Below are positions 861 to 59,569 of a stretch of 64,000 nt of DNA, one piece after another; the first letter of the stretch is position 1; each line of letters opens with the position of its first letter. Location of the stretch: contig JBAQUL010000005.1 in assembly GCA_049297495.1 (NCBI GenBank), positions 3,868 to 67,867 of the forward strand, in the 5' to 3' direction. The position numbers and the translations under genes were made by a program. The notes under the pieces are model-generated. The model made no database searches and was not told the DNA's origin. It saw only the letters and a list, made by a program, of their open reading frames with translations. This DNA is from Candidatus Moraniibacteriota bacterium. GTDB taxonomy: Bacteria; Patescibacteriota; Minisyncoccia; Moranbacterales; UBA2206.

Positions 861-898
861 ACGTTTTAAAATTTGATTTGTTAGAAATTATATTTACA

Positions 899-1080
899 TC
901 CCCTTCGCCCTCCGGGAGAAGGTGGCCCCGCCGCGGCGGGGATGAGGGCAAGGGTGTTATATTAAGCAAAAACTAAATTAGTCTAGATTATTCTTAATTT
1001 ATAGCCCTTGCCCTCACCTGTCACGTACTCGTGACATCCCTGCCTACCGCCAGGCAGGCTCTCCCGAAGGGCGAGGAGAA
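899..1080. repeat. GC-rich composite palindromic intergenic element (copy A): nested hairpins plus roughly 16-bp terminal inverted repeats around an AT-rich core
   Basis: The near-palindrome CCCCGCCGCGGCGGGG, GATGAGGGCAAGGG paired with CCCTTGCCCTCACC around an AT-rich loop of about 60 nt, GTCACGTACTCGTGAC, CCTGCCTACCGCCAGGCAGG, and ends TTCGCCCTCCGGGAGA versus TCTCCCGAAGGGCGA. About 65% GC in an AT-rich genome. A second copy lies at 10031-10209. Confidence 0.6.
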
Positions 1081-6763: not shown

Positions 6764-6840
6764 TGGCGGGGACGGCCGGACTCGAACCGGTGACCTACTG
6801 CGTGACAGGCAGTCGCTCTAACCAACTGAGCTACGCCCCC
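6764..6840 (-). tRNA. tRNA-Asp (GTC), CCA encoded
   Basis: The reverse complement folds as a cloverleaf: GGGGGCG/TA/GCTC-AGTTGGTTA-GAGC/G/ACTGC-CTGTCAC-GCAGT/AGGTC/ACCGG-TTCGAGT-CCGGC/CGTCCCC/GCCA. The anticodon loop CTGTCAC gives anticodon GTC. Confidence 0.85.
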
Positions 6841-6866
6841 AATGTATTATTCTATTTTAAATTTAC

Positions 6867-6922
6867 ACCTACTGCGTGGCAGTCCGCCGGCTGGCGGATC
6901 TAACCAACTGAGCTACGCCCCC
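6867..6922 (-). pseudogene. tRNA fragment: 5' half of the tRNA-Asp sequence fused to a GC hairpin, with no T-arm
   Basis: The reverse complement starts GGGGGCGTAGCTCAGTTGGTTAGA (identical to the tRNA-Asp 5' part), then the hairpin TCCGCCAGCCGGCGGA, then CTGCCACGCAGTAGGT. There is no T-arm or 3' acceptor strand. The same hairpin type recurs at 10543-10558. Confidence 0.6.
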
Positions 6923-7001
6923 AAATTGTATTATGTATCTGGTATTTAGTATCAAGTATTCATACAACATACTAGATACCTTATACTAAATACTATTTTT
7001 G

Positions 7002-8556: not shown

Positions 8557-10011
8557 TTATTTACTAATCTCATAAGCATGCGCCGCGCGCAACATATTTT
8601 CCTCGTCAAACCATTTTGCCATTAATTGAAATCCAAACGGAAGTTTCTTTCCATCAACTTCAACCTCCGGCCCCGGAACAGAAATCGCTGGCACGCCGAC
8701 AATATTAGCTGTAATGGAAAACATATCAGCCAGATACATTTTTAAGGGATCTTCGTTTTTTTCTCCTATCTTAAAAGCTGGGGTAGGCGCAGTAGGAGCA
8801 AGAATCAAATCAACTTTTTCAAATGCTTTTTCAAAATCACTCTTAATCAGCGTTCGCACCTTTTGCGCCTTGAGATAATAGGCATCATAATAACCAGATG
8901 AAAGTGCGTATGTTCCAAGCATAATCCTTCTCTTCACTTCCTTACCAAAACCATATTGGCGAGAATCGAGATAGGTCTCCAAAAGTTTTTTAGGCATACC
9001 GTCCTCCCTCACACCAGAATCCTGCTTATCATCAACATTAAGCCCATATCTAATTCCGTCATATCTTGCTAGATTCGAACTGACTTCGCAAGGTTGAATG
9101 ATATAGTATGTCGCTAAGGAATATTTTGAATGTGGCAGTTCAATCTCTACAATTTCTGCCCCTAATTTCTTATAAGTTTCAATAACTTCAAGAATGGATT
9201 TCTTCTCTTTTTCATCCAGCCCATCAATATATTCAGCCACAATTCCAATCCTAAGTCCCTGGACTTCTCCGGTCAAATATTTCGTATAATCCTTTCCTGA
9301 GCTATGGGCTGAGGTAGCGTCCAGCTTATCCTGTCCGGCAATCGCACTAAGTACAATTGCTGCGTCTTCTACGTTTTTTGTTATTGGTCCAATTTGGTCA
9401 AGACTTGATGCCATCGCAATTGCCCCATGGCGCGAAACGCGACCATAAGTTGGCTTCAAACCGACTACTCCGCAGAAAGAAGCTGGCTCACGAATTGAAC
9501 CGCCCGTATCTGTCCCTAATGCCCAAGCGGCTTCGCCCGCAGCTACCGCTGCCGCTGAACCGCCAGATGAACCACCAGCTACACGAGTCAAGTCTAATGG
9601 ATTTTTTGTAACACCATAGGCGCTGTTTTCTGTCGATGATCCCATGGCAAATTCGTCCAGATTAGTTTTTCCCAAAAATACTGACCCAACCTCTTTCAAT
9701 CTTTCAATCACCGTCGCGTCATAGGGAGCGATATAGCTATCTAAAATCTTAGAAGCAGCCGTTGTTCTCACGCCAGAAATGCAAAGATTGTCTTTGATTG
9801 CTCCCGGAATCCCCTCTAAGAGTTCAATTTTTTCGCCTCGAACAATTTTTGCGTCCACTTTGCGGGCTTGTTCTAACGCCAAGTCTTTAGTTAAAGTTAG
9901 ATAAGCAAAAATATCTTTATCTTTTTCTTCAATACGCGCAAAATACTCTTCCGTCAATTTCACTGAAGTTATTTCACCTGATATTAATTTATTGTGGAGT
10001 TCTCTGATCAT
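8557..10011 (-). CDS. gatA: Asp-tRNA(Asn)/Glu-tRNA(Gln) amidotransferase subunit A
   Basis: 484 aa with the amidase signature GGSSGGSAAAVAAGEA...GTDTGGSIR and GatA-typical length and N-terminus. Confidence 0.9.
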   Translation of the reverse strand: MIRELHNKLISGEITSVKLTEEYFARIEEKDKDIFAYLTLTKDLALEQARKVDAKIVRGEKIELLEGIPGAIKDNLCISGVRTTAASKILDSYIAPYDATVIERLKEVGSVFLGKTNLDEFAMGSSTENSAYGVTKNPLDLTRVAGGSSGGSAAAVAAGEAAWALGTDTGGSIREPASFCGVVGLKPTYGRVSRHGAIAMASSLDQIGPITKNVEDAAIVLSAIAGQDKLDATSAHSSGKDYTKYLTGEVQGLRIGIVAEYIDGLDEKEKKSILEVIETYKKLGAEIVEIELPHSKYSLATYYIIQPCEVSSNLARYDGIRYGLNVDDKQDSGVREDGMPKKLLETYLDSRQYGFGKEVKRRIMLGTYALSSGYYDAYYLKAQKVRTLIKSDFEKAFEKVDLILAPTAPTPAFKIGEKNEDPLKMYLADMFSITANIVGVPAISVPGPEVEVDGKKLPFGFQLMAKWFDEENMLRAAHAYEISK

Positions 10012-10030
10012 GGATTCGCCTTATTCATAT

Positions 10031-10209
10031 CCCCTTCGCCCCTCAGGAGAAGCCTGCCTGCCGGTAGGCAGGGTGGCCCCGCCACGGCGGGGATGAGGGC
10101 AAGGGCGTTTGATATATTTATTACTATCTTATATACAACAATTTTTCCTTTAAATAAAACCCTTGCCCTCACCTGTCCTTCGGACATCCTCTCCCAAGGG
10201 GAGAGGAGA
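10031..10209. repeat. GC-rich composite palindromic element (copy B) lying between gatC and gatA
   Basis: Shares with copy A the blocks CCCCTTCGCCCCTCAGGAGAAG, CCTGCCTGCCGGTAGGCAGG, GTGGCCCCGCCACGGCGGGGATGAGGGCAAGGGCG, an AT-rich loop, and CCCTTGCCCTCACCTGTC, then the hairpins GTCCTTCGGAC and CCTCTCCCAAGGGGAGAGG. It fills the 221-bp gap between the gatC stop (10233) and the gatA start (10011). Confidence 0.6.
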
Positions 10210-10232
10210 CAGTTTTTATTGACTACTGAAAA

Positions 10233-10514
10233 CTATAATACTGACTTCACCTTATCATACCCATTTTTACTCTCCGGAAACAATTCAACAATTTTCTCTT
10301 TATTTAAAAAATCTTCCATCCGATCTTCTCTAGAAACATCATTCATGCCTGTAATATGCGCGGTTGGCAAAACTCCCGCCACATCCACCTCATCAAGCTG
10401 TTTTATCCAATCCAAAATCGACGACAAATCATGGGAAAATTTATCCATTTCTTTTTCGGTAATCCCGATTCTAGCTAAATTCGCGATGTGCTTTACTTCG
10501 TCCTTTGATAACAT
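10233..10514 (-). CDS. gatC: Asp-tRNA(Asn)/Glu-tRNA(Gln) amidotransferase subunit C
   Basis: 93 aa, MLSKDEVKHIANLARIGITEKE..., a typical GatC N-terminus. Confidence 0.85.
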   Translation of the reverse strand: MLSKDEVKHIANLARIGITEKEMDKFSHDLSSILDWIKQLDEVDVAGVLPTAHITGMNDVSREDRMEDFLNKEKIVELFPESKNGYDKVKSVL

Positions 10515-10679
10515 AAACGCAATAAATTAAAATTTCAATCCGCCAGCTGGCGGACAAATGCCAAATAAATTTCAAAGCTCAAAATTCAAAAACTTTGTCA
10601 TTTTAATTTTGGGCTTGATTTGACACCTGCCTGCCGGTAGGCAAGGTTAGAAATTTGGTTTTTGACTTTTTAAAAATCA

Positions 10680-12992
10680 TTACTGGATCATTCTTCTGAA
10701 TTCCTCCTCGTCTATAATCCTCACCCCCAACTCCTTCGCCTTGCCATATTTCGACCCAGGATTTTCCCCGGCAATCACATAGTCGGTATTTTTGCTAACA
10801 GATGAGGAAACACTTCCTCCTGCTTTTCTAATCATATCCTTTAGAACGTCTCTTGTAAAGTTTTCAGCCTCTCCGGTGAGCACAAATGTTTTTCCCCAAA
10901 TCTTTTCATTTACTTCTTTTTTCTCATTATCTATTAAAATTTCCACGCCAGATTCTCTCATTTTCTCTAGCATTTTCACATTTTCCATATCCGAAAACCA
11001 CTGATTCAGACTCTCCGCCGACTTATCTCCAATACCCTTGATTCCCATCCAATCTTCTTTTTTTATCAAAGGAAAAAACTTGATAATGTCCGCCAGATTT
11101 GTAATTTTAAAATTTGACATTTGGTCATTGATTTGAAATTGGAAATTTGGATTTTGAAATTCCCTGTTAATCGCCCCAGTGATTAACAGGGCAGTTTCTT
11201 CGCCAGCATAGCGGATCCCCAGGGCATAGAGAAATTTATCCAATGCAATATGTTTACTTTTTTCAATCGCCAAAATCAAGTTATCAGCTGACTTTTCGGC
11301 AAAGCGCTCAAGCGGTTCCAAATCTCCTTTTTTCAGTTCAAAGATTTCCGCCATATCAGAAATCACTCCCTCGCCAATCAGTTGCTCAACAATTTTTTCA
11401 CCCAATCCGTCAATATTAAAGCCTTTTTTGGAAACAAAATGAATAATTTTTTCTTTCTCCACCGCAAAACATTTCGGATTAGCACAATAGAGTGCAGCGC
11501 TCTCTGTTCCCCCGCCTGCAACGCTATGCTCGCCCGAAGCTGTTGCATCGCTACGAGCGGGCGTAGCATTGCGGGCAGGTTTTCCGCCAATAATTTCCTT
11601 TCTCACTGGCCCACCACAAATCGGGCAAACCTGAGGCATCACAAAAACCTTTTCTTTTCCCGTACGAAGGCCAACTAGTGCTTCGGTTATTTCCGGAATA
11701 ACATCTCCCGCTTTTTGCACAACCACCGTATCCCCGATTCGCACATCCAAACGGCGTATTTCATCTTCATTGTGCAGTGTCGCGCGACTTACCATTGAAC
11801 CAGCCACCAGTACCGGTCGCAGATGTGCTACTGGCGTGAGCGCTCCAGTACGCCCCACCTGCACCCCAATATCTTCTACAACTGTAGTCACTTTTTCAGC
11901 TGGAAACTTGTAGGCAATGCCCCAACGAGGGGATTTTCCCGTGTAACCCAATTTCTCTTGAATTAAGCGCGAATTGATTTTAACCACCACCCCATCAATC
12001 CCGAAATCCTCTTTATCTTTTTTCCTCGTCCACTCCTGGTAATAATTTTCAATCTCTTCGACACTTTCACACAAGCGATAATGCTCATTCACCCGAAAAC
12101 CCAATTCTTCTAGAAGCTCCAGTTCTTCAATCTGTGTTTGTGGTAGTTTAATATTACTTTCCTCTTTGACATTTGGATTTTTGATTTTATTTGACATTGG
12201 AAATTTGGATTTTGAAATTTCCAGCATATCAATATCATACACAAAACACTCCAGCCGACGCTCAGAGGCAACCTTTGGATCGAGCTGTCTGATTGATCCG
12301 GCAGCGGCGTTCCTTGAGTTAGCAAACAATGCCTCGCCTTTTTTCGCACGCAACTTGTTGATTCGCACCAATTCTTTTTTCCCCATAAAACACTCTCCTA
12401 CCACGATGCAATTTATCGGCTGATTTAATTTCAGAGGAATATTAAAAATCGTTTTCAAATTCTCTGTCACATCCTCGCCAATCACGCCATCACCCCGCGT
12501 CGCTCCACGCACAAAGTCACCATTTTCATAGGTCAGAATAACTTTCAACCCATCAATCTTGAGCTCGCAAACATAATCCGGTTTAGTATTTGGTATCGAA
12601 TCAGTATTAAAACCAAATTCTAATTTATTTTTGGGAATTGGAACTTTGGATTTTGAAATTAAGCGAAGCGTTTTTTCTTCCCATTTCACCATTTCCTCCA
12701 AATTGAAAGCATCATTAAACGACCATTGTCTGGTTTTGTGAAGCACTTTTTGAAATTTATCGAGCGGTTTCCCGCCGATTCTTTGGGTCGGAGAGTCGAG
12801 AAATTTCCACTGGGGATATTTCTCCTCCAGCCCTTTAAGCTCTGCCATGAGGGATGAATAAACCTCATCGGTCAGATCTGGCTTATCTAAGTCATGATAT
12901 TCGTGCCGCAATTTATTAATCTCAGCTGAGAGCTTCTGAATCCGCTGCCTAATTTGTTCGTTATTTTCTTGCATAAGGGTATTATAACACAC
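10680..12992 (-). CDS. ligA: NAD-dependent DNA ligase, unusually long at 770 aa, with in-frame repeat-derived insertions; the probable true start is Met7 at 12974
   Basis: Adenylation motif CELKIDGLK, an OB fold, the Zn finger CPICGG...CANPKC, HhH and a C-terminal BRCT domain are all present. The Met7 start MQENNEQIRQRIQKL fits LigA N-termini. Three AT-rich repeat copies (11105-11162, 12165-12222, 12618-12660) are translated in frame as ...EFQNPNFQFQIND..., ...ISKSKFPMSNKIKNPN... and ...ISKSKVPIPKNKLEF.... A GC-rich segment (about 11515-11585) inserts roughly 30 aa (KPARNATPARSDATASGEHSVAGGGTESAAL) between the Cys pairs of the zinc finger. Confidence 0.9.
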   Translation of the reverse strand: MCYNTLMQENNEQIRQRIQKLSAEINKLRHEYHDLDKPDLTDEVYSSLMAELKGLEEKYPQWKFLDSPTQRIGGKPLDKFQKVLHKTRQWSFNDAFNLEEMVKWEEKTLRLISKSKVPIPKNKLEFGFNTDSIPNTKPDYVCELKIDGLKVILTYENGDFVRGATRGDGVIGEDVTENLKTIFNIPLKLNQPINCIVVGECFMGKKELVRINKLRAKKGEALFANSRNAAAGSIRQLDPKVASERRLECFVYDIDMLEISKSKFPMSNKIKNPNVKEESNIKLPQTQIEELELLEELGFRVNEHYRLCESVEEIENYYQEWTRKKDKEDFGIDGVVVKINSRLIQEKLGYTGKSPRWGIAYKFPAEKVTTVVEDIGVQVGRTGALTPVAHLRPVLVAGSMVSRATLHNEDEIRRLDVRIGDTVVVQKAGDVIPEITEALVGLRTGKEKVFVMPQVCPICGGPVRKEIIGGKPARNATPARSDATASGEHSVAGGGTESAALYCANPKCFAVEKEKIIHFVSKKGFNIDGLGEKIVEQLIGEGVISDMAEIFELKKGDLEPLERFAEKSADNLILAIEKSKHIALDKFLYALGIRYAGEETALLITGAINREFQNPNFQFQINDQMSNFKITNLADIIKFFPLIKKEDWMGIKGIGDKSAESLNQWFSDMENVKMLEKMRESGVEILIDNEKKEVNEKIWGKTFVLTGEAENFTRDVLKDMIRKAGGSVSSSVSKNTDYVIAGENPGSKYGKAKELGVRIIDEEEFRRMIQ

Positions 12993-18926: not shown

Positions 18927-19712
18927 CTAAAATAAGTTCAGATACCAGCCCACAATTGGAACATAGTAGAAAAGAGCAAAAAATGTCCCAATAATCAAAA
19001 ATGGAGCAAAAGGAAGTTGACTCTTCATCTCTTTCTTCTTCATTCCAATAAGAATTATACCATAAATAGCACCAATTGCGAAAGCTAGAAAAAGCCCCAG
19101 AAGAATTCTTGGCCAACCCAAAATAAACCCAAGCAGGATAACGAGATAGGCGTCACCCATTCCCATCCATTTTTCCTTTGAGAAATAGGACAAGGAGAAA
19201 AAAAACAAAAATGCACCTCCACCAGCCATAATTCCAGAAACTGCCATTCGTTCCCAGACAGTTGAAAATGTTTGCCCAAAATCAAAATAAACATTGAAAA
19301 TCAAGACCAAAATGATTGCTGGCCAAAGAATCAAATTGGGAATTTCCATGTACAAAATGTCATAGATAAAAATTACCAAAAGAGCGCTAACGAGAGCAAG
19401 CATCACGCCAGTAATCAGCCAGGTCGCAGGATCTTCTAGTCTAAAATATTGATTTGCTAAAAGCGCAAAAACAACGCCCGTGAGCAACTCCACTAAAGGA
19501 TACTGCCAAGAAATTTTTTCTCCACACTCACGACATTTAAATTTCAGAAGGACAAAACTCAAAACCGGGATATTATCATACCAACGAATAGTTTTTTTGC
19601 ATTTTCGACAATGAGAACGCCCCATTATCGTTTCTGCCGTACGAATACGATAAATAACAACATTAAGAAAACTACCAATAATCAGACCGAAAAGAAAAAA
19701 AATGATAAGCAT
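18927..19712 (-). CDS. pilD: prepilin peptidase / N-methyltransferase (A24 family)
   Basis: 261 aa, polytopic membrane protein with CRKC...CREC zinc motifs in the first cytoplasmic loop and the layout of the A24 peptidase family. Confidence 0.85.
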   Translation of the reverse strand: MLIIFFLFGLIIGSFLNVVIYRIRTAETIMGRSHCRKCKKTIRWYDNIPVLSFVLLKFKCRECGEKISWQYPLVELLTGVVFALLANQYFRLEDPATWLITGVMLALVSALLVIFIYDILYMEIPNLILWPAIILVLIFNVYFDFGQTFSTVWERMAVSGIMAGGGAFLFFFSLSYFSKEKWMGMGDAYLVILLGFILGWPRILLGLFLAFAIGAIYGIILIGMKKKEMKSQLPFAPFLIIGTFFALFYYVPIVGWYLNLF

Positions 19713-27199: not shown

Positions 27200-27634
27200 T
27201 TAGAGCCCTGTTTCAACATAGGTACATCCGGCTTCAGAACATGCAGCAGCCACCGTTCCAGTTCCAACATTACAAGTTAGATTGAGAAAAAATATACCAT
27301 CAGAATTGCTTGTAGTAGCATTAAAGGTTATTGGATTGATAAATGAACACGTTTTTGGAACTAGGTTCGGAAGCATGGAAACAGTTCCTGGGCAAACATT
27401 AGTTGTAGTTGTTCCAAAGCCAGCATTAGTTGGAGCAGCAAGGGTGGAACCCATATCTTCACACATCGCAAACGCCGGCACCAAGCTGGAAATACCAGCC
27501 TTAAACGATGCCGATTTTGCCTTCGCTCTCGCCGCATTCAAACTAACCAACACGATCGATGCCAAAATTCCAATGATCGCAATCACGATCAAAAGTTCAA
27601 TCAGCGTAAAACCTTTTAATTTTTTATTTTTCAT
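27200..27634 (-). CDS. pilA: type IVa major pilin (paralog 1)
   Basis: Start MKNKKLKG|[21 protein letters not shown], a canonical prepilin; 145 aa with C-terminal Cys pairs. Conserved 5' leader with RBS (AACTAGAAAGGTGGGTGAAATTATG). Confidence 0.85.
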   Translation of the reverse strand: MKNKKLKGFTLIELLIVIAIIGILASIVLVSLNAARAKAKSASFKAGISSLVPAFAMCEDMGSTLAAPTNAGFGTTTTNVCPGTVSMLPNLVPKTCSFINPITFNATTSNSDGIFFLNLTCNVGTGTVAAACSEAGCTYVETGL

Positions 27635-27786
27635 AATTTCACCCACCTTTCTAGTTTGCCTCTAAGTCACCAATAAGTAGATGACTAAAAGCATTATTTT
27701 TCCCACTAAATTCCGCTCTAGTCGGGTACCAGCTTCGCTGGACTTAGTAAGATTATTTCCTATGTAAAATCAAATCTTAATTCTTT

Positions 27787-28158
27787 CTATGGGCAGAGAT
27801 CAAAATTAACTCCGGCACTTGTAATAACTGCTCCTGTGCAAGTCGCAGGCAAACTAGCAGGATCAACTGGAGTCACATCAATATCATCAAAACTTCCCGA
27901 TCCATTGCACATATTGTCTGTTGAAGCTGGCGAACTCACAGATGGTGGAACCGCTGTAATGAGCATTGTGTTACCATCGTCAGAACTACATTCACTAGCA
28001 TAAGCAGATTTCAAGCTTGCAACTCCGGATTTGAAATCAGCTTGCCTGGCTTTCGCTCTCGCACTATTTAAACTAACCAAGACGATTGACGCCAAAATTC
28101 CAATAATCGCGATTACAATCAAAAGTTCAATCAAGGTAAAGCCTTTTTTATTTTTCAT
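27787..28158 (-). CDS. pilA: type IVa major pilin (paralog 2)
   Basis: MKNKKG|[31 protein letters not shown]...; the same N-terminal 45 aa and 5' leader as paralog 1 (AACTAGAAAGGCGGGTGAATTATG), with a divergent C-terminal domain. Confidence 0.85.
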
Positions 28159-28192
28159 AATTCACCCGCCTTTCTAGTTTTAAAAATCTTTT

Positions 28193-29416
28193 CTATTTTA
28201 TCTGTCCTGCAATATTATATATCGGCATAAGAACTCCCACGGCCATAAAACCGACACCGAGTCCAATCATAATCATTAAAATTGGTTCAATCAGCGTTGA
28301 CATATTTTTTGCCATCAATTCCACTTCTTGACTATAAAACTTAGTGATATGCCCAAGTACCGCGTCGACTTGACCAGAATCCTCACCAATTTTGATCATA
28401 TGCGAAACCATTGGGGGGAAAAGTGGACTTCTGCGCAAAATGTCACTCATCGTCTCTCCTCTTTTCACATTTTCCGCAGTACGCAAAAGCAACTCTTCAT
28501 AGGCCGAATTTCCAATCACCGCACTAACAATCGTAAGCGCTTTTATAATTGGAATACCACCTGCCAAAAGCACAGCTAAATTTTCAGAAAACCTTGTGAT
28601 ATAAACATACCGAAATAACGTCCCGATTACTGGCAACTTTAATTTAATCTGATCCCATTCTTTTTTCCCCTCTGGCGTGTTGAGATAGTAAGCAATACCA
28701 GCGATAGCGCCAAAAATAAGCACCAGCACTGCCCACCAATATTGCACCATGAAATCCCCGGTTTTGATGAGTACATTCGTATACCAAGGAACTTCTGCTT
28801 CCAACTCCTTAATCATTATAGTTAGCTTCGGGATAATCAGCGTAATTACCAAAAAACCGATAATGAAAAACACGACCATAATTATTGCAGGGTAAAGCAT
28901 GGCCGATTTCACCTTGTTACTCAGATTATAGTTTTTTTCGATATTATCCGCCACATATTCGACAGACTTTCTCAAATTTCCCGAGGCTTCGCCGGCTTTG
29001 ATGATATTGATGACCAAATTAGAAAAGACTTCTTTATGTTTAGCAAGCGCATCAGACAGTGGAACACCATCCTCGATGTCCTTCATTGCTTCAGCCAGAA
29101 TGATTTTCAAAAAACTGCTCGTCGTTTGCTCTCCGATAGCTGCGAGAGCCACCACAATCGGCACCCTTGCTTCAATCAAAATTGCCAGCTGTCGAAAAAA
29201 GATTACCAACTCCTTGCTCGTGACTTTGTCAAAATATTGAGCGACTACTTTTTTGACTGAACTCCCCACCTCTTCCTCAAGACTGATTGGAAAAAGCTCA
29301 TTTTTTTGCAAAATAGCCGCAGCCACATCACGACTAGCTGCGCTGATGTAGCCAGTATTAACTTCTCCTGTTTTTGTTTTAGCTTTAAATTTAAATTTCA
29401 TATTTTTCACCCTCAA
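28193..29416 (-). CDS. pilC: type IV pilus inner-membrane platform protein (GspF family)
   Basis: 407 aa with two GspF repeats and three TM segments. Confidence 0.85.
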   Translation of the reverse strand: MRVKNMKFKFKAKTKTGEVNTGYISAASRDVAAAILQKNELFPISLEEEVGSSVKKVVAQYFDKVTSKELVIFFRQLAILIEARVPIVVALAAIGEQTTSSFLKIILAEAMKDIEDGVPLSDALAKHKEVFSNLVINIIKAGEASGNLRKSVEYVADNIEKNYNLSNKVKSAMLYPAIIMVVFFIIGFLVITLIIPKLTIMIKELEAEVPWYTNVLIKTGDFMVQYWWAVLVLIFGAIAGIAYYLNTPEGKKEWDQIKLKLPVIGTLFRYVYITRFSENLAVLLAGGIPIIKALTIVSAVIGNSAYEELLLRTAENVKRGETMSDILRRSPLFPPMVSHMIKIGEDSGQVDAVLGHITKFYSQEVELMAKNMSTLIEPILMIMIGLGVGFMAVGVLMPIYNIAGQIK

Positions 29417-29507
29417 CCATTTTTTTTATTTTTCAGAAATTTCCAGTCTTATGACTTTTTTATTATACCATCATTTCAAATAAATAGAAAATTCAGTAAC
29501 TTCTCAA

Positions 29508-30578
29508 CTAGTATCTGAGCAGTGTTTCGAAATTTTTTGTGTCCCTTGCATAGGCCGAAGCGACTTCAAGAGAAACCAAACCTCTTCTGACTAAATCGGC
29601 CAGTGAGCGATCCATTGTCACCATCCCCTCTTGAGAACTCGTTTCAATCACATTACCAATCTGATAACTTTTGTTTTCTCGGATCAAGTTTTCCACCGCA
29701 TGATTTTTAATCATGATTTCAACCGCCGGAGACCGACCCTCGTCAACCCTGGGGATCAAACGCTGAGACACGACTGCCAAAAGCACGCTGGCCAATTGGG
29801 CTCGGACTTGATTTTGCTGATGCGCAGGAAAAACATCCACGATACGATCAATTGTTTGCGGGGCATCATTGGTGTGAAGTGTCCCAAAAATCAAATGCCC
29901 GGTTTCAGCCGCTGTCATTGCCGCGGAAATCGTGTCCAAGTCTCGCAGCTCACCAATAAGCACTACGTTCGCATCCTCGCGAAAAAGTCCCTTTAGCGCC
30001 AGCTGAAAAGAATTCGTGTCTTGATAGACTTCTCTTTGATTGATAATTGAGCGATCCTGCTCATAGACATATTCAATTGGGTCTTCAATAGTCAAGATAT
30101 GCTTTTCTTGGTTATGATTAATATCATCAATCATAGCGGCTAGTGTTGTCGATTTTCCATGCCCCACCGGTCCTACCATTAAAAATAATCCTTGCGAAAC
30201 TTTGGTGAAATCATAAAGAATTTCCGGCACACCCAATTCCTCCAACGTACGAATACCTTTGGAAATTAGACGAAATGCCATACTTGTATAGCCCTGTTGA
30301 AAAAAAGCATTAACGCGAAAACGCACCTTGTCCTCAAAATTATAGGAGAGGTCGACTTGCCCTTCTTTTTCTAATTGCTTTTTCTTCTCTTCATTCAAAA
30401 CAACATCGCAAATCTCACGTGTAACTTCAGGTGTAATTATTTCATCTTGATTGAGCGAGATGAGTTTTCCGTCAATTCGATAGGTCGGATAGCGACCAAC
30501 CACCAAATGCAAGTCTGATGCTCCGCGTTGCGCGGCGATTCTTAATAAATTTTTTATTTTTTGTTCAGTTCTTAACAT
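29508..30578 (-). CDS. pilT: twitching-motility retraction ATPase
   Basis: 356 aa; Walker A GPVGHGKSTT, Asp box, His box, and PilT length. Confidence 0.85.
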   Translation of the reverse strand: MLRTEQKIKNLLRIAAQRGASDLHLVVGRYPTYRIDGKLISLNQDEIITPEVTREICDVVLNEEKKKQLEKEGQVDLSYNFEDKVRFRVNAFFQQGYTSMAFRLISKGIRTLEELGVPEILYDFTKVSQGLFLMVGPVGHGKSTTLAAMIDDINHNQEKHILTIEDPIEYVYEQDRSIINQREVYQDTNSFQLALKGLFREDANVVLIGELRDLDTISAAMTAAETGHLIFGTLHTNDAPQTIDRIVDVFPAHQQNQVRAQLASVLLAVVSQRLIPRVDEGRSPAVEIMIKNHAVENLIRENKSYQIGNVIETSSQEGMVTMDRSLADLVRRGLVSLEVASAYARDTKNFETLLRY

Positions 30579-30584
30579 AAATGT

Positions 30585-30974
30585 TTAGCTATTACCAATA
30601 AGCAAATTTATTTTCTCCAAAACTTCTGATGGCGTGAAATGAGATTTGATCAAATAATCCTTCGCTCCCAATCCCATCCCCTTGTCAATCTCGGCCTTTT
30701 GACTTAAGTTAGTGAGCAAGATTACCGGGATATTCTTTAGTTTATCATCATTTTTTATCCGTTCCAAAACTTCTAGTCCGCCAAGATAGGGCATGATAAT
30801 GTCTAGCAAAATCAAGTCGGGAATTTGTTTTTCTTCTTGTAGTTTTTTTAGCGCGTCAATTCCATTATTCGCACTGATCACATCAAAGCCGGACTGCGTG
30901 AGTTTTGTGTGATAGATGTCCATGACGAAATAGTCATCCTCGATAATCATGATCTTCTTTTTCTGCTCTTCCAT
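30585..30974 (-). CDS. single-domain CheY-like response-regulator receiver
   Basis: 129 aa; MIIEDD...LILLDIIMP...K, with the conserved D/D/T/K positions of a REC domain. Confidence 0.75.
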   Translation of the reverse strand: MEEQKKKIMIIEDDYFVMDIYHTKLTQSGFDVISANNGIDALKKLQEEKQIPDLILLDIIMPYLGGLEVLERIKNDDKLKNIPVILLTNLSQKAEIDKGMGLGAKDYLIKSHFTPSEVLEKINLLIGNS

Positions 30975-31003
30975 AAAATTATAGTTAAAAAATAAAAATA
31001 TAC

Positions 31004-32677
31004 TTAATCGTTTTCCTCAGTCAGGGTTGTGAAATTGCACTCTGTTACTCGCTCTACCTCTTCAATTGTTGTGAGCCCTTGGATAATCTTCAATATTCCA
31101 TCCTGCTCAATCGTAATCACCCCCATCCGATCGCGCTCTTTTTTGAGCAATTCTTCACTGCCTCTTTTTTCAATAATAATATTCCTGATTTCCTCTGTCA
31201 CCGGGACTGCTTCATAGATCGCTACTCGCCCTTTAAGTCCCGTTCCGTTGCAAGCGTCACACCCAGCGCCATGATAAAACTTGAGTCCATCCGCCAATTT
31301 TATCCCATAATTCTCCAATTCTTTTTCGTCAATATTCTTTATTTTTTCCGCTATTCCGCCGCTAACCACAGGAGAAACCGTAATCTCTTTTTTGCATTTT
31401 TCGCAAATTCGCCGCACCAAACGCTGGGCAATCACCATTCTTAGTGACGAAGAAAGCAAGAATGGCTCAATTTTCATATCAATCAACCGCGGAATGGCGC
31501 CGATAGCTGTGTTTGTATGCAACGTAGAAAACATCAAATGCCCCGTAAGAGCAGCGTGAACCGCCAGCTCTGCTGTTTCGGCGTCACGGATTTCTCCCAC
31601 CATAATCACATTGGGATCTTGACGCAAAACCGTTCGCAGACCTGAAGCAAAAGTATAGCCTATTTCCGGCTTGATCTGGCTTTGATTCAGGCCTTCGATG
31701 AAATATTCCACCGGATCTTCCAGTGTTATGATATTTCGCTCTTCGTTATTTAAAATTTTTAAAAGAGTGTAAAGTGTGGTTGATTTTCCACTACCAGTCG
31801 GACCAGTCATCAAAATCATCCCATATGTCTCACGAATTGCCACACTAATATCATGCTTTGCCATCCCGACGAGTCCAAGATTATCAATACTACTCGTACC
31901 ACTATCCTTGTCCAAGATTCTCATTACAATCTTTTCTCCGCCAACAACAGGCAAAGATGAGACGCGAAAGTCGATATCTTTTTTGTTAAAATTCAGTCGA
32001 AACCGACCATCTTGCGGCTTTCTCTTTTCATCAATTTTCAAATTGGCCAAAATTTTTATGCGAGAAATCACCACCGGACCAATCTCGATCGGAAAAATCA
32101 AGCTGACATGCAGAACACCGTCCACTCGAAAACGGACACGATAATCTTTGTCCATCGGTTCAATGTGGATGTCGCTAGCCTTTCCTTCCACAGCATGACT
32201 AATAATCACTTCCACTAACTTCGTAACAGGCGCGTCTTTCAAAATTTCCGCTTCCTTTTTCTTTCCTGAAACAGCACTATTACTATCCTCAATCGCTAAT
32301 TGATCCTTTTCATCTTCGAAAGAGTCAACTGCTTCCTTCAACGCCTCATTCGTTTCATTATAGAAAGCAAATAAATCAGCGAATACTTTTTGCGAGACTG
32401 CATAAGTCTCAATTTTGCCCCTCTCTTTTTCCGCCACAAAATTCAAAGTGTTCAAAGCTTGCGCGTCTTCCGGATCAGTCATTGCCACCTTCAAAATATC
32501 TCCCGACTTACCAAAAACCATCATACCATATTTCTCTGCAACTTCCTTGGGAATCATATTGACAAGACTGCCCGCAACAGTTTTCGGCGCCTCACGCAAA
32601 ATATTCTGTCGAAGACCATCCGCAGCATTTCCATCGACAGCCTCTTCATTTTTCACATCATCATCTTTCGGAGTCAT
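31004..32677 (-). CDS. pilB: type IV pilus assembly ATPase (GspE family)
   Basis: 557 aa; N-terminal GspE_N domain, Walker A GPTGSGKSTT, and a C-terminal tetracysteine motif CEKC...CDAC. Confidence 0.9.
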   Translation of the reverse strand: MTPKDDDVKNEEAVDGNAADGLRQNILREAPKTVAGSLVNMIPKEVAEKYGMMVFGKSGDILKVAMTDPEDAQALNTLNFVAEKERGKIETYAVSQKVFADLFAFYNETNEALKEAVDSFEDEKDQLAIEDSNSAVSGKKKEAEILKDAPVTKLVEVIISHAVEGKASDIHIEPMDKDYRVRFRVDGVLHVSLIFPIEIGPVVISRIKILANLKIDEKRKPQDGRFRLNFNKKDIDFRVSSLPVVGGEKIVMRILDKDSGTSSIDNLGLVGMAKHDISVAIRETYGMILMTGPTGSGKSTTLYTLLKILNNEERNIITLEDPVEYFIEGLNQSQIKPEIGYTFASGLRTVLRQDPNVIMVGEIRDAETAELAVHAALTGHLMFSTLHTNTAIGAIPRLIDMKIEPFLLSSSLRMVIAQRLVRRICEKCKKEITVSPVVSGGIAEKIKNIDEKELENYGIKLADGLKFYHGAGCDACNGTGLKGRVAIYEAVPVTEEIRNIIIEKRGSEELLKKERDRMGVITIEQDGILKIIQGLTTIEEVERVTECNFTTLTEEND

Positions 32678-33465
32678 TATTTTGCAAGTATAAAAGGATT
32701 ATTCCCTCTTTTTTGTCCCGGCATAACATTATTAACATCAACATTTCGACTACTGCTTATTTTTCCAATAATCTGACTATCAAAACTTCCCGTCGAAAAA
32801 ATTTCATTACTAAGATCAGCATCAGTCAATCTCTTCGGTTCATTCAAATAATTAAACTCCAAAAGCATATTTGCTTGCAACGAATCACTTACCTCCTGAT
32901 TTTCTGTCATCAGCGTTTTTATCTCTAGTCCTGCAAATTTATTAAATCTTTTCAACTTTTGAATTTTCGCAATCAACACTTTTATATTATCATAGCCACC
33001 AACAACTGAGTATTTTACTTTCAATTTCTTTGGTACTAGCTTCGGTGCGTTAGGCACAATAGCTCCTGTGACAGGATCGGTAATCGGCGGTGCAATTGAA
33101 AGCGTACTAACCTCTGCAGCGACAGCAGCATCTGACAACTCGGAAACCGAAATTTCCAATACGGCCAAAGTGCTTCCTGTTGCCTGTAAGTTTAGATTTT
33201 CAATAATTTTTTCTTCCTCCTTGCTCTTGGGAATGTAATCAAAAACAACTGCATTTTGGGTAGTATTACTATTTAGCTCTGATCCCAATTTCTCTGCGTT
33301 ACTGATATTGCTATCCAGCTTAGCCATGAGCGCCTCTTGCTCTGCCATTTTCGCACTCCTTTCTCTGACACCATCCACGCCGTCATAGGCAGGATAGACG
33401 TACCAAATAATTGCGACTACGATAACAATGATTAGTCCCGGAGCTAATAGTATTTTTATTTTCAT
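32677..33465 (-). CDS. pilO: PilO-like pilus assembly protein
   Basis: 262 aa; N-terminal TM segment, a coiled coil, and a C-terminal alpha/beta domain. Its stop overlaps the pilB start. Confidence 0.6.
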   Translation of the reverse strand: MKIKILLAPGLIIVIVVAIIWYVYPAYDGVDGVRERSAKMAEQEALMAKLDSNISNAEKLGSELNSNTTQNAVVFDYIPKSKEEEKIIENLNLQATGSTLAVLEISVSELSDAAVAAEVSTLSIAPPITDPVTGAIVPNAPKLVPKKLKVKYSVVGGYDNIKVLIAKIQKLKRFNKFAGLEIKTLMTENQEVSDSLQANMLLEFNYLNEPKRLTDADLSNEIFSTGSFDSQIIGKISSSRNVDVNNVMPGQKRGNNPFILAK

Positions 33466-33470
33466 ATTTT

Positions 33471-33983
33471 TTATTTAATCGTTAAAACAACAGGGAAATT
33501 AATCATCCTTCTTTTCGCATCAAGCTTTGTCTCCCCTGCAAGGACAGTTGAAAAATAGTCATCCCCCTTAAAGCTCAAAATTTGCTTTGCCACCGTGTCA
33601 TAACTGTCAGCAAAGCAATCAATCTTAATTATCTTGGCCGCTTCATCATAGGTATAGGATTCAAGATATACGCCATCAATCATCACACTTTCGATATTTT
33701 CCAGATCCCTCCCATTATCCCGTTCCATTGCAAGAAGCTCATTTGAAATCGTCAATCTATTTTGAAAATCCAAAACTTTTTTGGAATCGCCAATGGTAAA
33801 CATATTAAATTTAGCCGCATACTCTTCTTTAGCAGTCGCTAAATCGGTCCCCAGCTTATTCCCATAAAAAATCATTCCTCCATAAATCAGCAAGACAACA
33901 AAGAATATCACTAAGAGAACAGTAGTGCCTGTTCCAAGCATTTTCGTATTTTCTCTGTCTGTAACTAAATTTATATTTGCCAT
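33471..33983 (-). CDS. pilN: PilN-like pilus assembly protein
   Basis: 170 aa; single TM segment plus a periplasmic domain. Confidence 0.6.
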   Translation of the reverse strand: MANINLVTDRENTKMLGTGTTVLLVIFFVVLLIYGGMIFYGNKLGTDLATAKEEYAAKFNMFTIGDSKKVLDFQNRLTISNELLAMERDNGRDLENIESVMIDGVYLESYTYDEAAKIIKIDCFADSYDTVAKQILSFKGDDYFSTVLAGETKLDAKRRMINFPVVLTIK

Positions 33984-34072
33984 TTTATTATTTCTACCTC
34001 GCTAAATTCGTCACTCATTCTGGACGACCCTGCCCAAAAGCAAGTTCAGCGAAATATCTTAAATTGTTTTAA

Positions 34073-35209
34073 CTATTTTTTATTTAAATTATCTTTCAAA
34101 TACTCGTCCACACCCTTCAATGCCAATCCAACCGCAATATTGAGATTATTTTGGATATCCGCAATGGTTGATTTTAACCGACTATCATAGCCGATTCGTG
34201 CAAAAGGATTGCCAATTGTTGTTTTTATCTTCAGCTTATTGGAAAAATAATCTGCAATGCCTGTCAATTTTGAAGTTCCGCCAGAAAGGATAATTTCCTC
34301 AATTTTATTCCGCTCACCATCCTTGCAATAAGCCCGAATCATTCGTTCTACCTCTCCCGTGATCAGTTCGAGTGTGAAAAAACTAATTGCCGATTCAGTT
34401 TCAAAAAAATTCTTACCAGAAATTTTGAGCGCCTCTGCTCTTTCCATGTCAATTCCCATTGCCTTTGCTATCGTCTTAGTCATTTCGATTCCACCCGCAT
34501 CAATATTTCGATTAATTCTGATTACCCCTTTTTCAACCAAGATGATATTGCAAACTCGCGCGCCAATATCCACAATAACGAAGCTACCTGTGTCATTACC
34601 CACTAGCGAGCGCACGACTGAAAAAGTTTCGATATCAATCGACTTCAAATCCAAGCCAGAAAGCTTGATCAGATTTTCATATTTCAAAACCTTTTTTCGT
34701 GAAGCAGCCACAAGTAAAACCTTAACCCGCACCCCGGAATCAGACTCCTTGACATCTCCACCAGCATCACCCGAAACCGGACGCTCTCTAATCAAAGACG
34801 CGGAATGGGTCTCTCTTTCGACAACCTCCCAACTAATTACCACTTCATCCAGTGAGGTTGGGATATATTTATGCGCCTCAAACTTAATTGCTTGCTCCAT
34901 GTCGCTATCAGCCATTTCAGGAAAATCAATGAGCGTTATGAGTCCTCCAAAAGCCGGCAAAGAAACATAGGCATCTCGCCCAGAAAACTTAGCCTTTTTA
35001 ATGACTCTTTTTAGGCATTGTGGCAGGATAACTTGAAAATATTCAACATTTTCATCTCCTTTTCCAGAATTGCTTCCATCCAGTGACATCCAGGCATAAT
35101 TAGAAAGCATCGGCCTTCCATCTACGACAGTAAGTTCAACCACCTTAATAGCAGCTGACCCAATATCAACACCCACAAATACATTTTTTTTGAAACTAAA
35201 ATCAAACAT
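34073..35209 (-). CDS. pilM: PilM, actin-like ATPase of the pilus alignment complex
   Basis: 378 aa; N-terminal VGVDIGSAAIKVV phosphate-1 motif. Confidence 0.8.
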   Translation of the reverse strand: MFDFSFKKNVFVGVDIGSAAIKVVELTVVDGRPMLSNYAWMSLDGSNSGKGDENVEYFQVILPQCLKRVIKKAKFSGRDAYVSLPAFGGLITLIDFPEMADSDMEQAIKFEAHKYIPTSLDEVVISWEVVERETHSASLIRERPVSGDAGGDVKESDSGVRVKVLLVAASRKKVLKYENLIKLSGLDLKSIDIETFSVVRSLVGNDTGSFVIVDIGARVCNIILVEKGVIRINRNIDAGGIEMTKTIAKAMGIDMERAEALKISGKNFFETESAISFFTLELITGEVERMIRAYCKDGERNKIEEIILSGGTSKLTGIADYFSNKLKIKTTIGNPFARIGYDSRLKSTIADIQNNLNIAVGLALKGVDEYLKDNLNKK

Positions 35210-42666: not shown

Positions 42667-42685
42667 ATTAGTTTTATTTTTATCT

Positions 42686-42826
42686 CACGACTTACGCGTT
42701 TGTCAAAGAATTATTCGCACGCACAGCCTATTTAGCTGAAAAAGCCTTTGGTAAACCAGCAGTAAATAAACCAAAATGAGGAAGCGTCGCTTTCAAGAAT
42801 AATTATTTGGCAAACACGTAAGTCCT
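42686..42826. mobile_element. MITE-like element copy 1 (about 140 bp with roughly 22-bp terminal inverted repeats)
   Basis: 5' CGACTTACGCGTTTGTCAAAG and 3' TTTGGCAAACACGTAAGTCCT are inverted repeats. Same family as copies at 49543-49690 and 59411-59557. Confidence 0.55.
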
Positions 42827-45321: not shown

Positions 45322-45490
45322 AATCTTGAACTATGATTTTTATGATTATCAACAAATTTCAAAATCCTAATATCAAATTTCCAATCAAGTCTTAAATTCA
45401 AATGACAAAATAATTTTCTGGCTTATTTTCTTGGATTTTGAATTTTGGTTTTTGTTTGACATTGAAAATTAGAAATTGAAAATTAATCCT

Positions 45491-45931: not shown

Positions 45932-46102
45932 ACGTTTTAGCTTAATTGTTTATACTGGTTTATCAAAAATATCATTATTTACATCATCCCTTTGAAAAAT
46001 ATAGTCAGTAATTTCCATTTTTTATCCAAAACGCACAGCTTCAATTCGAAAATTAAGAAATTTAAGCATTGTTTGGAAATTGGAAATTGGAAATTTCTCC
46101 CC

Positions 46103-49367: not shown

Positions 49368-49542
49368 TTTGTTGTTTCTAATTTTTTATAAATATTAAAA
49401 AGATAACTGTGACTTTCACTTGTTTAAATTATACAACAAAAAAACAATTCTTGCTACAAGACAAATAACTTCCTGCTGTGGATAACGTAAAAATATGATA
49501 TACTAATCTTACAATGAATTTAAAGATTAAAAAAAATGATCA

Positions 49543-49690
49543 GGACTTACGCGTTTGCCAAAAATAAGCTTTTCCATAGCCGGGGTTGATTAAAAAAAGC
49601 TTTGGTAGTTTTGGGCGTTAAGATAAACAAAAAACAAACTCTAAGTAACCACGCGCTTTAAAGATTGTTTTTGGTAAATGCGTAAGTCCT
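49543..49690. mobile_element. MITE-like element copy 2
   Basis: TIRs AGGACTTACGCGTTTGCCAAAAA and TTTTTGGTAAATGCGTAAGTCCT; about 75% identical to copy 3 over the whole element. Confidence 0.6.
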
Positions 49691-49716
49691 AATAATAAAA
49701 TAAATATATTAAACCT

Positions 49717-59292: not shown

Positions 59293-59410
59293 TGATTTAG
59301 CTTTAAAATATTATATCTCGCCCATATATCGACTATACACTAAACAAGGCTTTAAAGCAACCTTTATTAGAAGAGACGCTCCATAGTGGAGCGTCTCTTT
59401 TTATAAATAC

Positions 59411-59557
59411 AGGACTTACGCGTTTGCCAAAAACAAGCTTCCCTATAGCCAAGATTGGCCTGGAAAATTTCAGCAGTCTCGAGAGCTAAAAGAAGCAAAA
59501 GCAAGCTCTGGGCAGTCATGCGCTTTGAAGATTGTTTTTGGTGAACGCGTAAATCAT
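59411..59557. mobile_element. MITE-like element copy 3
   Basis: AGGACTTACGCGTTTGCCAAAAA ... TTTTTGGTGAACGCGTAAATCAT; internal similarity to copy 2 (AAGCTTCCCTATAGCC.., GCGCTTTGAAGATTGTTTTTGG). Confidence 0.6.
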
Positions 59558-59569
59558 TAAAAACTAAAA

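Follow-up and report, generated by a model that had tools for sequence, protein, structure and literature searches.

According to Di Nocera et al. 2013 (PMC3733652), repetitive extragenic palindromes (REPs) with GTAG or CGTC tags occur inside genes and are translated in frame, adding 7-30 residues to the protein, in some genes at more than one site; replication and repair genes are enriched among their hosts (uvrA, uvrB, dnaE, recBCD and, in Opitutus terrae, the ATP-dependent DNA ligase), which also include genes for tRNA synthetases and pseudouridine synthases. In-frame REP insertion in replication and repair genes is therefore already described (Di Nocera 2013). Rickettsia palindromic elements (RPEs) are selfish palindromes found in frame in unrelated housekeeping genes, where the peptide fits fold and function, and also between genes, as the work of Ogata et al. 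2000 is related in PMC10969869. Here we analysed ligA, the gene for the NAD-dependent DNA ligase LigA, in a 64-kb stretch of DNA from a Candidatus Moraniibacteriota bacterium, an uncultivated member of the candidate phyla radiation (CPR); the whole stretch is called the window. We consider it likely that LigA, otherwise normal, has been colonised by short dispersed repeats in four permissive surface loops, and that these repeats are translated into peptide loops that the enzyme tolerates and that are probably disordered. The likeness to RPEs suggested in the initial annotation, which was made from the sequence of the window alone, holds as a functional analogy: in both cases insertions are in frame, in housekeeping genes and at surface loops compatible with the fold. 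The elements are not members of an RPE family. RPEs measure ~100-150 bp and form families in Rickettsia only, whereas those described here measure 21-69 nt and have hosts in the CPR and in the Planctomycetes-Verrucomicrobia-Chlamydiae (PVC) group; size and host set them apart.

The window LigA was compared with 120 Moraniibacteriota-like orthologues (59-85% identity, 688-843 aa). A deposited identical protein, named LigA of a 'Candidatus Moraniibacteriota' metagenome-assembled genome (MAG), starts 6 codons later (ATG at 12974) and has 764 aa. Pfam searches identified PF01653, PF03120, PF12826/PF14520 and PF00533, corresponding to the adenylation, OB, HhH and BRCT domains, and E. coli LigA (2OWO) aligned with the window protein at E=3e-134. 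With its KxDG lysine, OB fold, Cys4 zinc finger, HhH and BRCT domains, the protein is an NAD-dependent LigA. The initial annotation had stated that all catalytic motifs are retained, and this was borne out by the complete set of Pfam domains and by the KxDG motif and four zinc cysteines present in the 2OWO alignment; K145 of KxDG and C456, C459, C503 and C508 were invariant in the 120 orthologues. Gaps or breaks against the E. coli enzyme were found at four places (aa ~110-135, ~258-280, 466-503 and ~603-647), located respectively in the Ia helix/adenylation linker, in a loop of the adenylation domain, between zinc Cys2 and Cys3, and inside HhH (sites 1 to 4, Table 1). The 770-aa open reading frame (ORF) is longer than usual, as claimed, with an excess of ~75-80 aa and not of ~100. 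The ligA-gatC-gatA order is the same in relatives (gatC, 10233-10514). Since the neighbouring conserved genes (gatA, a type IV pilus-type ATPase, a platform protein, a prepilin peptidase and a response regulator) were colinear with their orthologues without such indels, ligA is a local hotspot of inserts.

Sites 1, 2 and 4 contained copies of an AT-rich repeat with core AATTTCAAAATCCAAATTTCCAAT. The 24-nt core at 11138-11161 was identical to that at 12196-12219 and showed one mismatch at 12637-12660. The 23-mer TTGGAAATTTGGATTTTGAAATT was found exactly at 11139 and 12197, with 1 mismatch at 12638 and with 3 mismatches on the minus strand at 45355; the number of matches expected by chance, from shuffled sequence, was 0. 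Using the site-4 copy as a query, blastn-short returned 12189-12219 (31 nt, 97%, E=2e-10) and 12636-12660 (E=8e-7) within ligA, and 45355-45388 (E=5e-5) and 46067-46096 (E=0.012) between genes. Three copies in ligA and intergenic copies at ~45366-45483 and 46060-46100 had been proposed from the sequence, and all were recovered; a further pair is present in 10531-10679. The proposed use of two frames with an intact ORF also stood, the core being read as ISKSK(V/F)P at sites 1 and 2 and as EFQNPNFQ at site 4. Direct reading of the sequence revealed no stop codon in any of the three sense frames of the core. As the same core DNA is read in different frames, the copies arose at the DNA level and not by convergence of the proteins. 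The window copies at sites 2 and 4 shared 31/33 positions, as compared to 27/33 between the site-2 copies of the window and of the relative L086, the ligA genes of the two having a nucleotide identity of 74%. Paralogous copies closer to each other than to the orthologous one support DNA-level copying.

The description of the AT-rich repeat as an element had to be modified: the copies are dispersed, and they correspond to an imperfect array with a 7-nt period, not to an element of unique sequence. The core can be parsed as the heptamers AATTTCA/AAATCCA/AATTTCC/AAT. Pure heptamer arrays were found in the L086 ligA, (AATTTTC)x4 at site 4 and (AATTTCA)x3 at site 1, and (CAATTTC)x3 was found in the zinc finger of L085 and L001. 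Three heptamer units make 21 nt, equivalent to 7 codons. Because of the 7-nt period, residues seven positions apart co-vary in the inserts (EFxNPNFQFx, where x is Q, L, S or P), and amino-acid identity at lag 7 reached 13.6% in inserts versus 7.7% elsewhere across the 120 orthologues. Two processes therefore act on the AT-rich sequences, the spread of a specific imperfect core and local slippage or homogenisation. In the mechanism we propose, the AT-rich repeat would be copied between sites as DNA, which would account for its different reading frames, and would also lengthen or shorten locally through slippage, three units (21 nt, 7 codons) at a time.

A second AT-rich family was observed in the window. 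It includes the AT-rich palindrome GGTATTTAGTATCAAGTAT...ATACTAGATACCTTATACTAAATAC at 6938-6998, and its translation (SIPNTKY or QILDTK) is found in site 1 of the window LigA (12584-12601) and of the orthologues P0009, P0010 and P0042.

The insert at site 3 was of a different kind. The initial annotation had placed one GC-rich palindrome of about 70 bp in the Cys4 loop, adding about 30 aa. The added length was correct (43 residues between C459 and C503, compared to 14 in E. coli), and the segment proved to be 69 nt made of two nested hairpins, translated as PARNAT-PARSDATASGE-HSVAGG. At the same zinc-finger position, L086 and L088 carry an uninterrupted 36-nt imperfect palindrome, CCTGCCCGCAATGCTACGCATAGCGTTGCAGGCGGG, read PARNATHSVAGG. 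Codon-level alignment showed that the element is missing in L081, L083 and L087; subtracting 69 nt from the window site gives the length of the empty L081 site, and there is therefore no target-site duplication. No second copy of the 36-nt element was found elsewhere in the 64-kb window. Hairpins of 20-21 nt sharing its outer stem, CCTGCC...GGCAGG, were found at 1039-1058, 10053-10072 and 10626-10646. The 64 kb contain 1 copy of the 36-mer family and ~5 small hairpins. These GC-rich, REP-like imperfect hairpins have lengths of 21, 33 and 36 nt, all multiples of three. They would insert without target-site duplication, with a preference for AT-rich arrays and for the apexes of existing hairpins; insertion of one hairpin into the apex of another would explain the nested 36+33-nt element of the zinc finger.

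Related GC-rich sequences were also present in two composite modules of ~180 nt, in which nested hairpins (CCCCGCCRCGGCGGGG, GAGGGCAAGGG...CCCTTGCCCTC and CCTGCCTRCCG...GGCAGG) surround an AT-rich centre. One of them fills the gatC-gatA spacer of the window; in the six relatives with DNA available, this spacer measures 28-150 nt or the two genes overlap. A 178-aa ORF at 9994-10530 on the plus strand is spurious, being antisense to gatC and extended through this GC-rich module; its 'peptides' LPAGRQG and SDILSQGERR are translations of repeats present in real LigA loops of relatives. No Rfam family matched the composite modules or the ligA inserts at gathering thresholds, the whole window giving three tRNAs only.

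Table 1 Coordinates of ligA, its inserts and related repeats in the window, and of GIY-YIG/tRNA units in other loci.
Feature	Position	Strand	Description
ligA, NAD-dependent DNA ligase	10680-12992	minus	770 aa from GTG start; domains and catalytic residues intact
Insert site 1	12584-12661	minus	Ia helix/adenylation linker, aa ~111-136; AT core 12637-12660 read ISKSKVP
Site 1 tail			AT-rich, after the core; ends in GATACCAAATACTAAACC (SIPNTK module)
Insert site 2	12166-12222	minus	Adenylation-domain loop, aa ~258-279; AT core 12196-12219 read ISKSKFP
Insert site 3	11511-11579 (69 nt)	minus	Zinc-finger loop between Cys2 and Cys3
Site 3, outer 36-nt hairpin CCTGCCCGCAATGCTACG / CATAGCGTTGCAGGCGGG	Arms 11562-11579 and 11511-11528
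Site 3, inner 33-nt related hairpin CCCGCTCGTAGCGATGCAACAGCTTCGGGCGAG	11529-11561		Splits the outer apex; read PARSDATASGE
Insert site 4	11103-11162	minus	Inside HhH, aa ~610-630; AT core 11138-11161 in the other frame, EFQNPNFQFQ
ligA-gatC spacer	10531-10679		Inverted pair of AT-repeat modules, each with a small GC hairpin
Spacer hairpin CCGCCAGCTGGCGG	10540-10553
Spacer hairpin CCTTGCCTACCGGCAGGCAGG (reverse complement)	10626-10646
Composite GC-rich palindromic module, gatC-gatA spacer	10031-10207		Holds CCTGCCTGCCGGTAGGCAGG (10053-10072), outer stem of the ligA hairpin
Second composite GC-rich module	897-1079		Holds CCTGCCTACCGCCAGGCAGG at 1039-1058
Intergenic inverted pair of AT-repeat modules	45344-45490		Upstream of VirD4/TraG-like gene 42862-45321
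Weaker intergenic AT-repeat copy	46050-46100		(GGAAATT)n-like
GIY-YIG/tRNA unit	L081 8950-9400
GIY-YIG/tRNA unit	L010 4250-4700
GIY-YIG/tRNA unit	L128 3100-3530
GIY-YIG/tRNA unit	L110 7950-8390
GIY-YIG/tRNA unit	L137 650-1166
GIY-YIG/tRNA unit	L120 3600-4000

Comparison of the 120 orthologues indicated that the four sites are gained and lost among relatives. Their lengths ranged from 15 to 71 aa at site 1, from 8 to 59 at site 2, from 10 to 67 at site 3 and from 17 to 57 at site 4, and they contained unrelated repeat-derived peptides or nothing, with many sites empty. This variation in both length and content argues against lineage-specific domains, the alternative considered when the inserts were first noticed. 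About half of the orthologues had a 22-aa form of site 4 without the AT insert. The AT-rich repeat was found in all three frames (ISNFKFQISN, IPNSKSQIPNK and EFPISNFQFP), and other repeat translations recurred in the loops: LPTGRQA, PPAGG, SLVRRGGEE, LSQRERG, PHPNPLLSKERG and ARNATHSVAGG. A scan of contigs provided at least ~6 Moraniibacteriota loci, and ligA was compared at the DNA level in 8 orthologues, all of which (8/8) were in frame, with perfect heptamer tracts of at most 4 units. Close relatives differed by the clean presence or absence of 21, 33 or 36 nt, and the length differences between inserts (21, 33, 36 and 48 nt) were all multiples of three; at site 1, L085 was shorter by 48 nt and L088 corresponded to L086 plus the 21-nt CCTTGCCTACCGGCAGGCAGG. 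Sequences that are intergenic in the window were found inside ligA in relatives. The spacer hairpins occur in site 1, the 21-mer in L088 and CCGCCAGCTGGCGG in L087 and L001, and the intergenic segment 10165-10207 translates to SDILSQGERR, the peptide present in LigA site 1 of P0063, P0070 and P0109. At a fifth site, between HhH and BRCT, L081, L085, L086 and L088 carry a perfect 20-nt palindrome, AGACGAGGCATGCCTCGTCT, read ETRHASS (for example L086 8303-8322), where the window has a non-palindromic sequence of equal length.

AlphaFold2, run with the 120-sequence alignment, gave a model with a mean predicted local distance difference test (pLDDT) score of 83. All four insert segments were predicted as coil flanked by confident helices or strands, with a pLDDT below 50 at aa 123-134 (site 1), 262-277 (site 2) and 473-494 (site 3) and of ~64 at site 4. 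The placement of the inserts in surface loops, for which a structure prediction had been suggested, therefore agrees with low-confidence coil at all four sites. The model is consistent with exposed, flexible loops, a prediction that does not by itself prove disorder. Judging from the sequence, the inserts would be translated and harmless, and selection would filter insertions to permissive loops, to lengths that are multiples of three and to benign frames.

The repeats are not confined to ligA: besides the three intergenic AT-rich spacers and the stem-sharing small hairpins of the window, the 36-nt hairpin was detected in at least 100 unrelated metagenome loci. The scan used the 18-nt right arm CATAGCGTTGCAGGCGGG as an exact query and gave at least 122 matches; the left 18 nt are the informative half for identity, the right half being fixed by the search pattern. 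All counts that follow for this hairpin are among the matches listed. The complete palindrome was present in ~100 of them. After removal of duplicates, 80 independent copies were left, of which 60 were identical in the left 18 nt; flanks were unrelated and the contig GC content was 33-65%. The irregularities of the hairpin, two G-T pairs and one C-A mismatch in a stem of 16 bp, were conserved. Nested forms were again observed: L156 is almost identical to the window composite, and L126, L173 and L179 have an inverted copy of the same family inside the hairpin loop. By exact protein look-up, database names confirmed two of the host genes: in Ca. Daviesbacteria (CPR) a pseudouridine synthase, and in a Kiritimatiellia MAG a thiamine-phosphate kinase. 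By eye, the host ORFs also included CTP synthase, alanyl-tRNA synthetase (AlaRS), TypA, leucyl aminopeptidase, NrdD and its activase, thymidylate kinase, PBP2, ComM and agmatine deiminase. No match was found in PLSDB plasmids, INPHARED phages or IMG/VR viral contigs, and a phage or plasmid vector is therefore unsupported.

To classify copies as genic, the sequence of the element itself was ignored and long open frames were required on both sides. This was the case for 31 of 82 copies (~38%), compared to a coding fraction of ~90% in bacterial genomes, indicating that genic insertions are mostly lost. The frame remained open through the element in 30 of the 31 genic copies, and in 19 of the 31 it was the sense frame, read as PARNATHSVAGG. 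All four copies (4/4) in the antisense frame, normally interrupted by TAG, had a stop-removing TTCG or TGCG variant; in the other frames this variant was found in 3 of 26 copies.

The junctions were also informative. Arrays of 7 nt were found next to 10% of the 36-mers versus 0.5% of random positions, and direct repeats of at least 7 nt flanked 19% of the junctions versus 3% in controls. Such repeats were present at 15 of 80 copies and absent from 59; those present result from insertion into tandem arrays, and target-site duplication was ruled out since filled and empty ligA sites differ by the exact length of the element. Smaller hairpins also sit in AT-rich surroundings: the 21-mer of L088 is bounded by TTTCAAA and TTTCAAAT, the PPAGG hairpin of L087 and L001 is embedded in AATTTCAAAATCCAAT, and the intergenic hairpins of the window lie within AT modules. 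The flanks of the 80 copies showed a weak bias only, to A before and CAAA after the element. No unpaired terminal GTAG or CGTC tag was present in these 80 copies; CTAC was found only beside the loop, within the stem. Insertion into arrays and apexes points to a structure-dependent event, either insertion or conversion, involving a hairpin, cruciform or slipped strand. Together with the lack of target duplication, apex targeting suggests a mechanism dependent on hairpins or single strands, for which a RAYT (REP-associated tyrosine transposase) or IS200-type enzyme, a structure-specific nuclease and gene conversion from other copies would be candidates.

In L190, paralogous promoter-like modules contain at the same position either a 20-mer or a 38-nt long-hairpin form, with an 18-nt difference at the apex, an exchange that we take as evidence for one hairpin superfamily. 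Five such modules (TATATAAT box) lie at L190 1340-4380, upstream of toxin-antitoxin-type operons (HicAB-like, PemK-like and RhuM/Fic), and constitute a natural swap experiment between the 20-nt and 38-nt hairpins. L140 contains two inverted 36-mers and was examined as a transposon; this reading was rejected, the 124-nt inverted repeats enclosing 6.2 kb of ordinary genes (a TPR protein, methyltransferases, a P-type ATPase and an ABC transporter). CRISPR-repeat and TIGR-array readings were ruled out, the copies being solitary.

The most serious rival to colonisation by dispersed repeats is that the AT-rich segments are low-complexity linkers expanded in place by 7-nt slippage, in relaxed loops with a shared AT motif bias. 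We regard this as unlikely, despite pure tandem heptamers at the same sites in relatives, different heptamers at different sites of one gene, and the lag-7 periodicity and co-variation described above. The site-1 core also overlaps native codons, its start (LRLISKSK) coinciding with the end of the native helix, a feature shared by the short-loop relative L085. Slippage in place does not account for an identical imperfect core of 24-31 nt at three sites, in two frames and between genes, for which the chance expectation was 0, and it leaves the GC hairpins unaddressed. Slippage is better regarded as an additional process operating on these sequences than as an alternative. It is rather improbable that the repeats are kept for a role at the DNA or RNA level (uptake, recognition, regulation or mRNA structure) or as a new interaction surface of LigA. 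The extreme conservation of the 36-mer across phyla, including its two G-T pairs and C-A mismatch, would fit such a role, as would its strong bias of orientation and frame and the L190 hairpin located within a repeated terminator- or promoter-like module. REPs are enriched in genome-maintenance genes, as are known uptake sequences, and genes for type IV pili and type IV secretion, typical of CPR bacteria that scavenge DNA, are present in the window. Against a function, presence, position and identity of the inserts differ among close relatives and many orthologue sites are empty; the host genes of the 36-mer are unrelated, and the ~38% of copies in ORFs amounts to a depletion from coding sequence. 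One signal across phyla is also unlike species-specific uptake sequences, and selection for the peptide that does least harm would account for the frame bias just as well.

Hairpin-forming, mobile-looking inserts in essential genes could also be intervening sequences, removed from mRNA or bypassed by the ribosome like GC-rich bypass elements in some yeast mitochondria, and CPR bacteria are reported to be rich in introns of rRNA and tRNA genes (PMC13011429). We find this very hard to accept, given that all the insert lengths tested were multiples of 3, that genic 36-mers are nearly all stop-free and those in the stop frame had lost the stop, that the AT core is open in three sense frames, and that no Rfam family was found in the region; a bypass or intron-like element was rejected on the same 30 of 31 open copies and stop-removing variants. 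An assembly or sequencing artefact is the least credible explanation and has next to no weight in our assessment. The source is a MAG and the same short sequence is found in many assemblies. An identical LigA was, however, deposited independently, and L086 and L088, from other samples, have the same insert at the same site; the copies are in frame, with nested and diverged variants and no adapter-like pattern, and they had no match in plasmid, phage or viral collections.

Several observations weigh against colonisation by mobile repeats. Pfam searches of 30 ORFs of the window identified no transposase, RAYT, integrase or GIY-YIG protein, and no transposase, RAYT or GIY-YIG gene was found in the 64 kb, so that mobility is inferred from distribution only. 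The ~6-7 AT-rich modules and the one hairpin of the 36-mer family in the window are far below the densities of classical REPs, which number tens to thousands per genome and lie mostly downstream of genes, and slippage alone can create and homogenise AT-rich arrays. The inserts at sites 4 and 2 are common to some relatives and are therefore inherited, not recent. As single strands, the AT copies folded no better than shuffled sequences (z from 0.4 to -1.8), and the same was found for the inverted pair at 45340-45489; folding of the GC composite reached a z-score of only -2.0, and the ligA-gatC spacer was also at z ~ -2. In view of these weak scores, we do not claim a selected RNA or DNA structure.

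A bolder extension of the colonisation reading is that the 36-nt hairpin CCTGCCCGCAATGCTACGCATAGCGTTGCAGGCGGG and its shorter CCTGCC...GGCAGG relatives form an undescribed and currently active class of coding-compatible mobile hairpins, exchanged horizontally among CPR and PVC bacteria and spread by machinery dedicated to them. This is a tentative possibility that we hold to be doubtful. The defining traits of such a class would be lengths in multiples of three, absence of target duplication, and insertion into hairpin apexes and 7-nt arrays. If it exists, such hairpins would continually reshape surface loops of essential proteins where genomes are reduced. Genes for small, stand-alone GIY-YIG nucleases are one candidate for the machinery. 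Clustering of ORFs around the 36-mer loci gave a single recurrent family, a small GIY-YIG protein of ~80-100 aa, and a GIY-YIG gene was located within 350 nt of the hairpin for 6 of 118 copies, versus 1.2% expected (p=0.003). Small GIY-YIG ORFs lie within or beside tRNA genes (Met, Gln and Glu), adjoining a duplicated tRNA fragment with CCTGCC...GGCAGG or the 36-nt hairpin. In L081 and L010 the hairpin is in the anticodon loop of a tRNA-Met copy, and in L120 the GIY-YIG ORF apparently splits the D-loop of the tRNA. In the window itself, the intact tRNA-Asp (6764-6840, minus strand) has immediately upstream, at 6841-6925, a duplicated 5' fragment of the same tRNA, in which the D-arm/anticodon-stem region is replaced by the hairpin TCCGCCGGCTGGCGGA (6884-6897). 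This scar, at 6868-6925, has the architecture of the units made of tRNA fragment, hairpin and GIY-YIG gene, without the ORF. It is possible that these units constitute a mobile cassette or an intron-like element that has gone unrecognised. The 36-mer was only weakly associated with tRNA genes, 9 of 118 copies lying within 200 nt compared to 3.6% at random, about twofold. We treat the GIY-YIG association as a lead rather than a result.

The elements resemble intragenic REPs in being imperfect palindromes located both between and inside genes, with lengths of 36, 33 and 20-21 nt here and 20-40 nt for REPs, and their 36-mer hosts overlap the list of REP hosts. They differ in having no terminal GTAG or CGTC tag, which places them outside those REP superfamilies, as well as longer stems and a low density in the window. 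REP families are specific to a species or genus, whereas one sequence is found here across phyla; apex nesting, the association with 7-nt AT arrays, the CPR hosts and the lack of a RAYT in the window are further differences. Imperfect hairpins with conserved irregularities and no target-site duplication are also typical of REPIN/RAYT and IS200/IS605 systems. A HUH transposase that recognises hairpins in single-stranded DNA is a mechanism matching irregular hairpins without target duplication. Neither a RAYT nor a Y1 transposase was present in the window, and no conserved flanking tetranucleotide was found; moreover, REPINs are mostly inherited vertically within lineages, unlike the cross-phylum 36-mer. 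Short GC-rich hairpins are also found in fungal mitochondria (GC clusters, double-hairpin elements and 'byp' elements), where they spread in AT-rich genomes, enter coding genes and nest. These are organellar, and the ribosome skips byp elements, for which an in-frame position is not required, whereas the copies described here preserve the frame and are stop-free. With simple-sequence contingency loci, the ligA arrays share tandem 7-nt units within an ORF; they are short (3-4 pure units), imperfect, always in frame and located in an essential gene, with no evident on/off variants. A phase-variable contingency locus was thus rejected, based on no more than 4 perfect units and on the 8 of 8 orthologues in frame. 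A MITE (miniature inverted-repeat transposable element) was rejected as well, given that there is no target-site duplication and that filled and empty sites differ by the element length. No report of such elements in CPR bacteria was found in the full-text literature searched, the coverage of which is incomplete.

Other repeats were observed in the window. A dispersed repeat with core CAGGACTTACGCGTTTGCCAAAAA, unrelated to those of ligA, is present at 49536-49696 (inverted pair), at 59409-59562, ~9.9 kb away, and at 42685-42707. In-frame tandem repeats of 111-120 nt (x4) at 48767-49234 belong to a 960-aa ORF (46485-49367), and repeats of 159 nt (x3) at 36020-36496 belong to a 1364-aa ORF (35834-39928). 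Neither ORF had a Pfam match; both probably encode repetitive surface proteins. A type IV pilus-type cluster at 27200-35209 encodes pilins, a platform protein, two ATPases and PilM, with a prepilin peptidase at 18927-19712, and the VirD4/TraG-like coupling protein at 42862-45321 has the AT-repeat inverted pair just upstream. The pilus cluster and the coupling protein are DNA-uptake or transfer machinery typical of CPR bacteria.

CPR genomes are very small, and the persistence of selfish DNA in their essential genes is unexpected. Here, one essential replication and repair enzyme has four or five hotspots where repeats are gained, lost, nested and apparently translated. Repeats of this kind would explain much of the length variation and of the low-complexity "hypothetical" peptides in CPR proteomes; annotators and structure predictors should be warned that such loops are repeat-derived, and the insertions could be used as natural markers of the positions at which LigA and other enzymes tolerate them. 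The locus also offers a tractable case to study the movement of REP-like hairpins and their preference for replication and repair genes as intragenic hosts, a question raised since the REP and RPE studies. In our opinion, the most interesting point is the cross-phylum 36-mer, an element common almost base for base to bacteria of different phyla, and what moves it.

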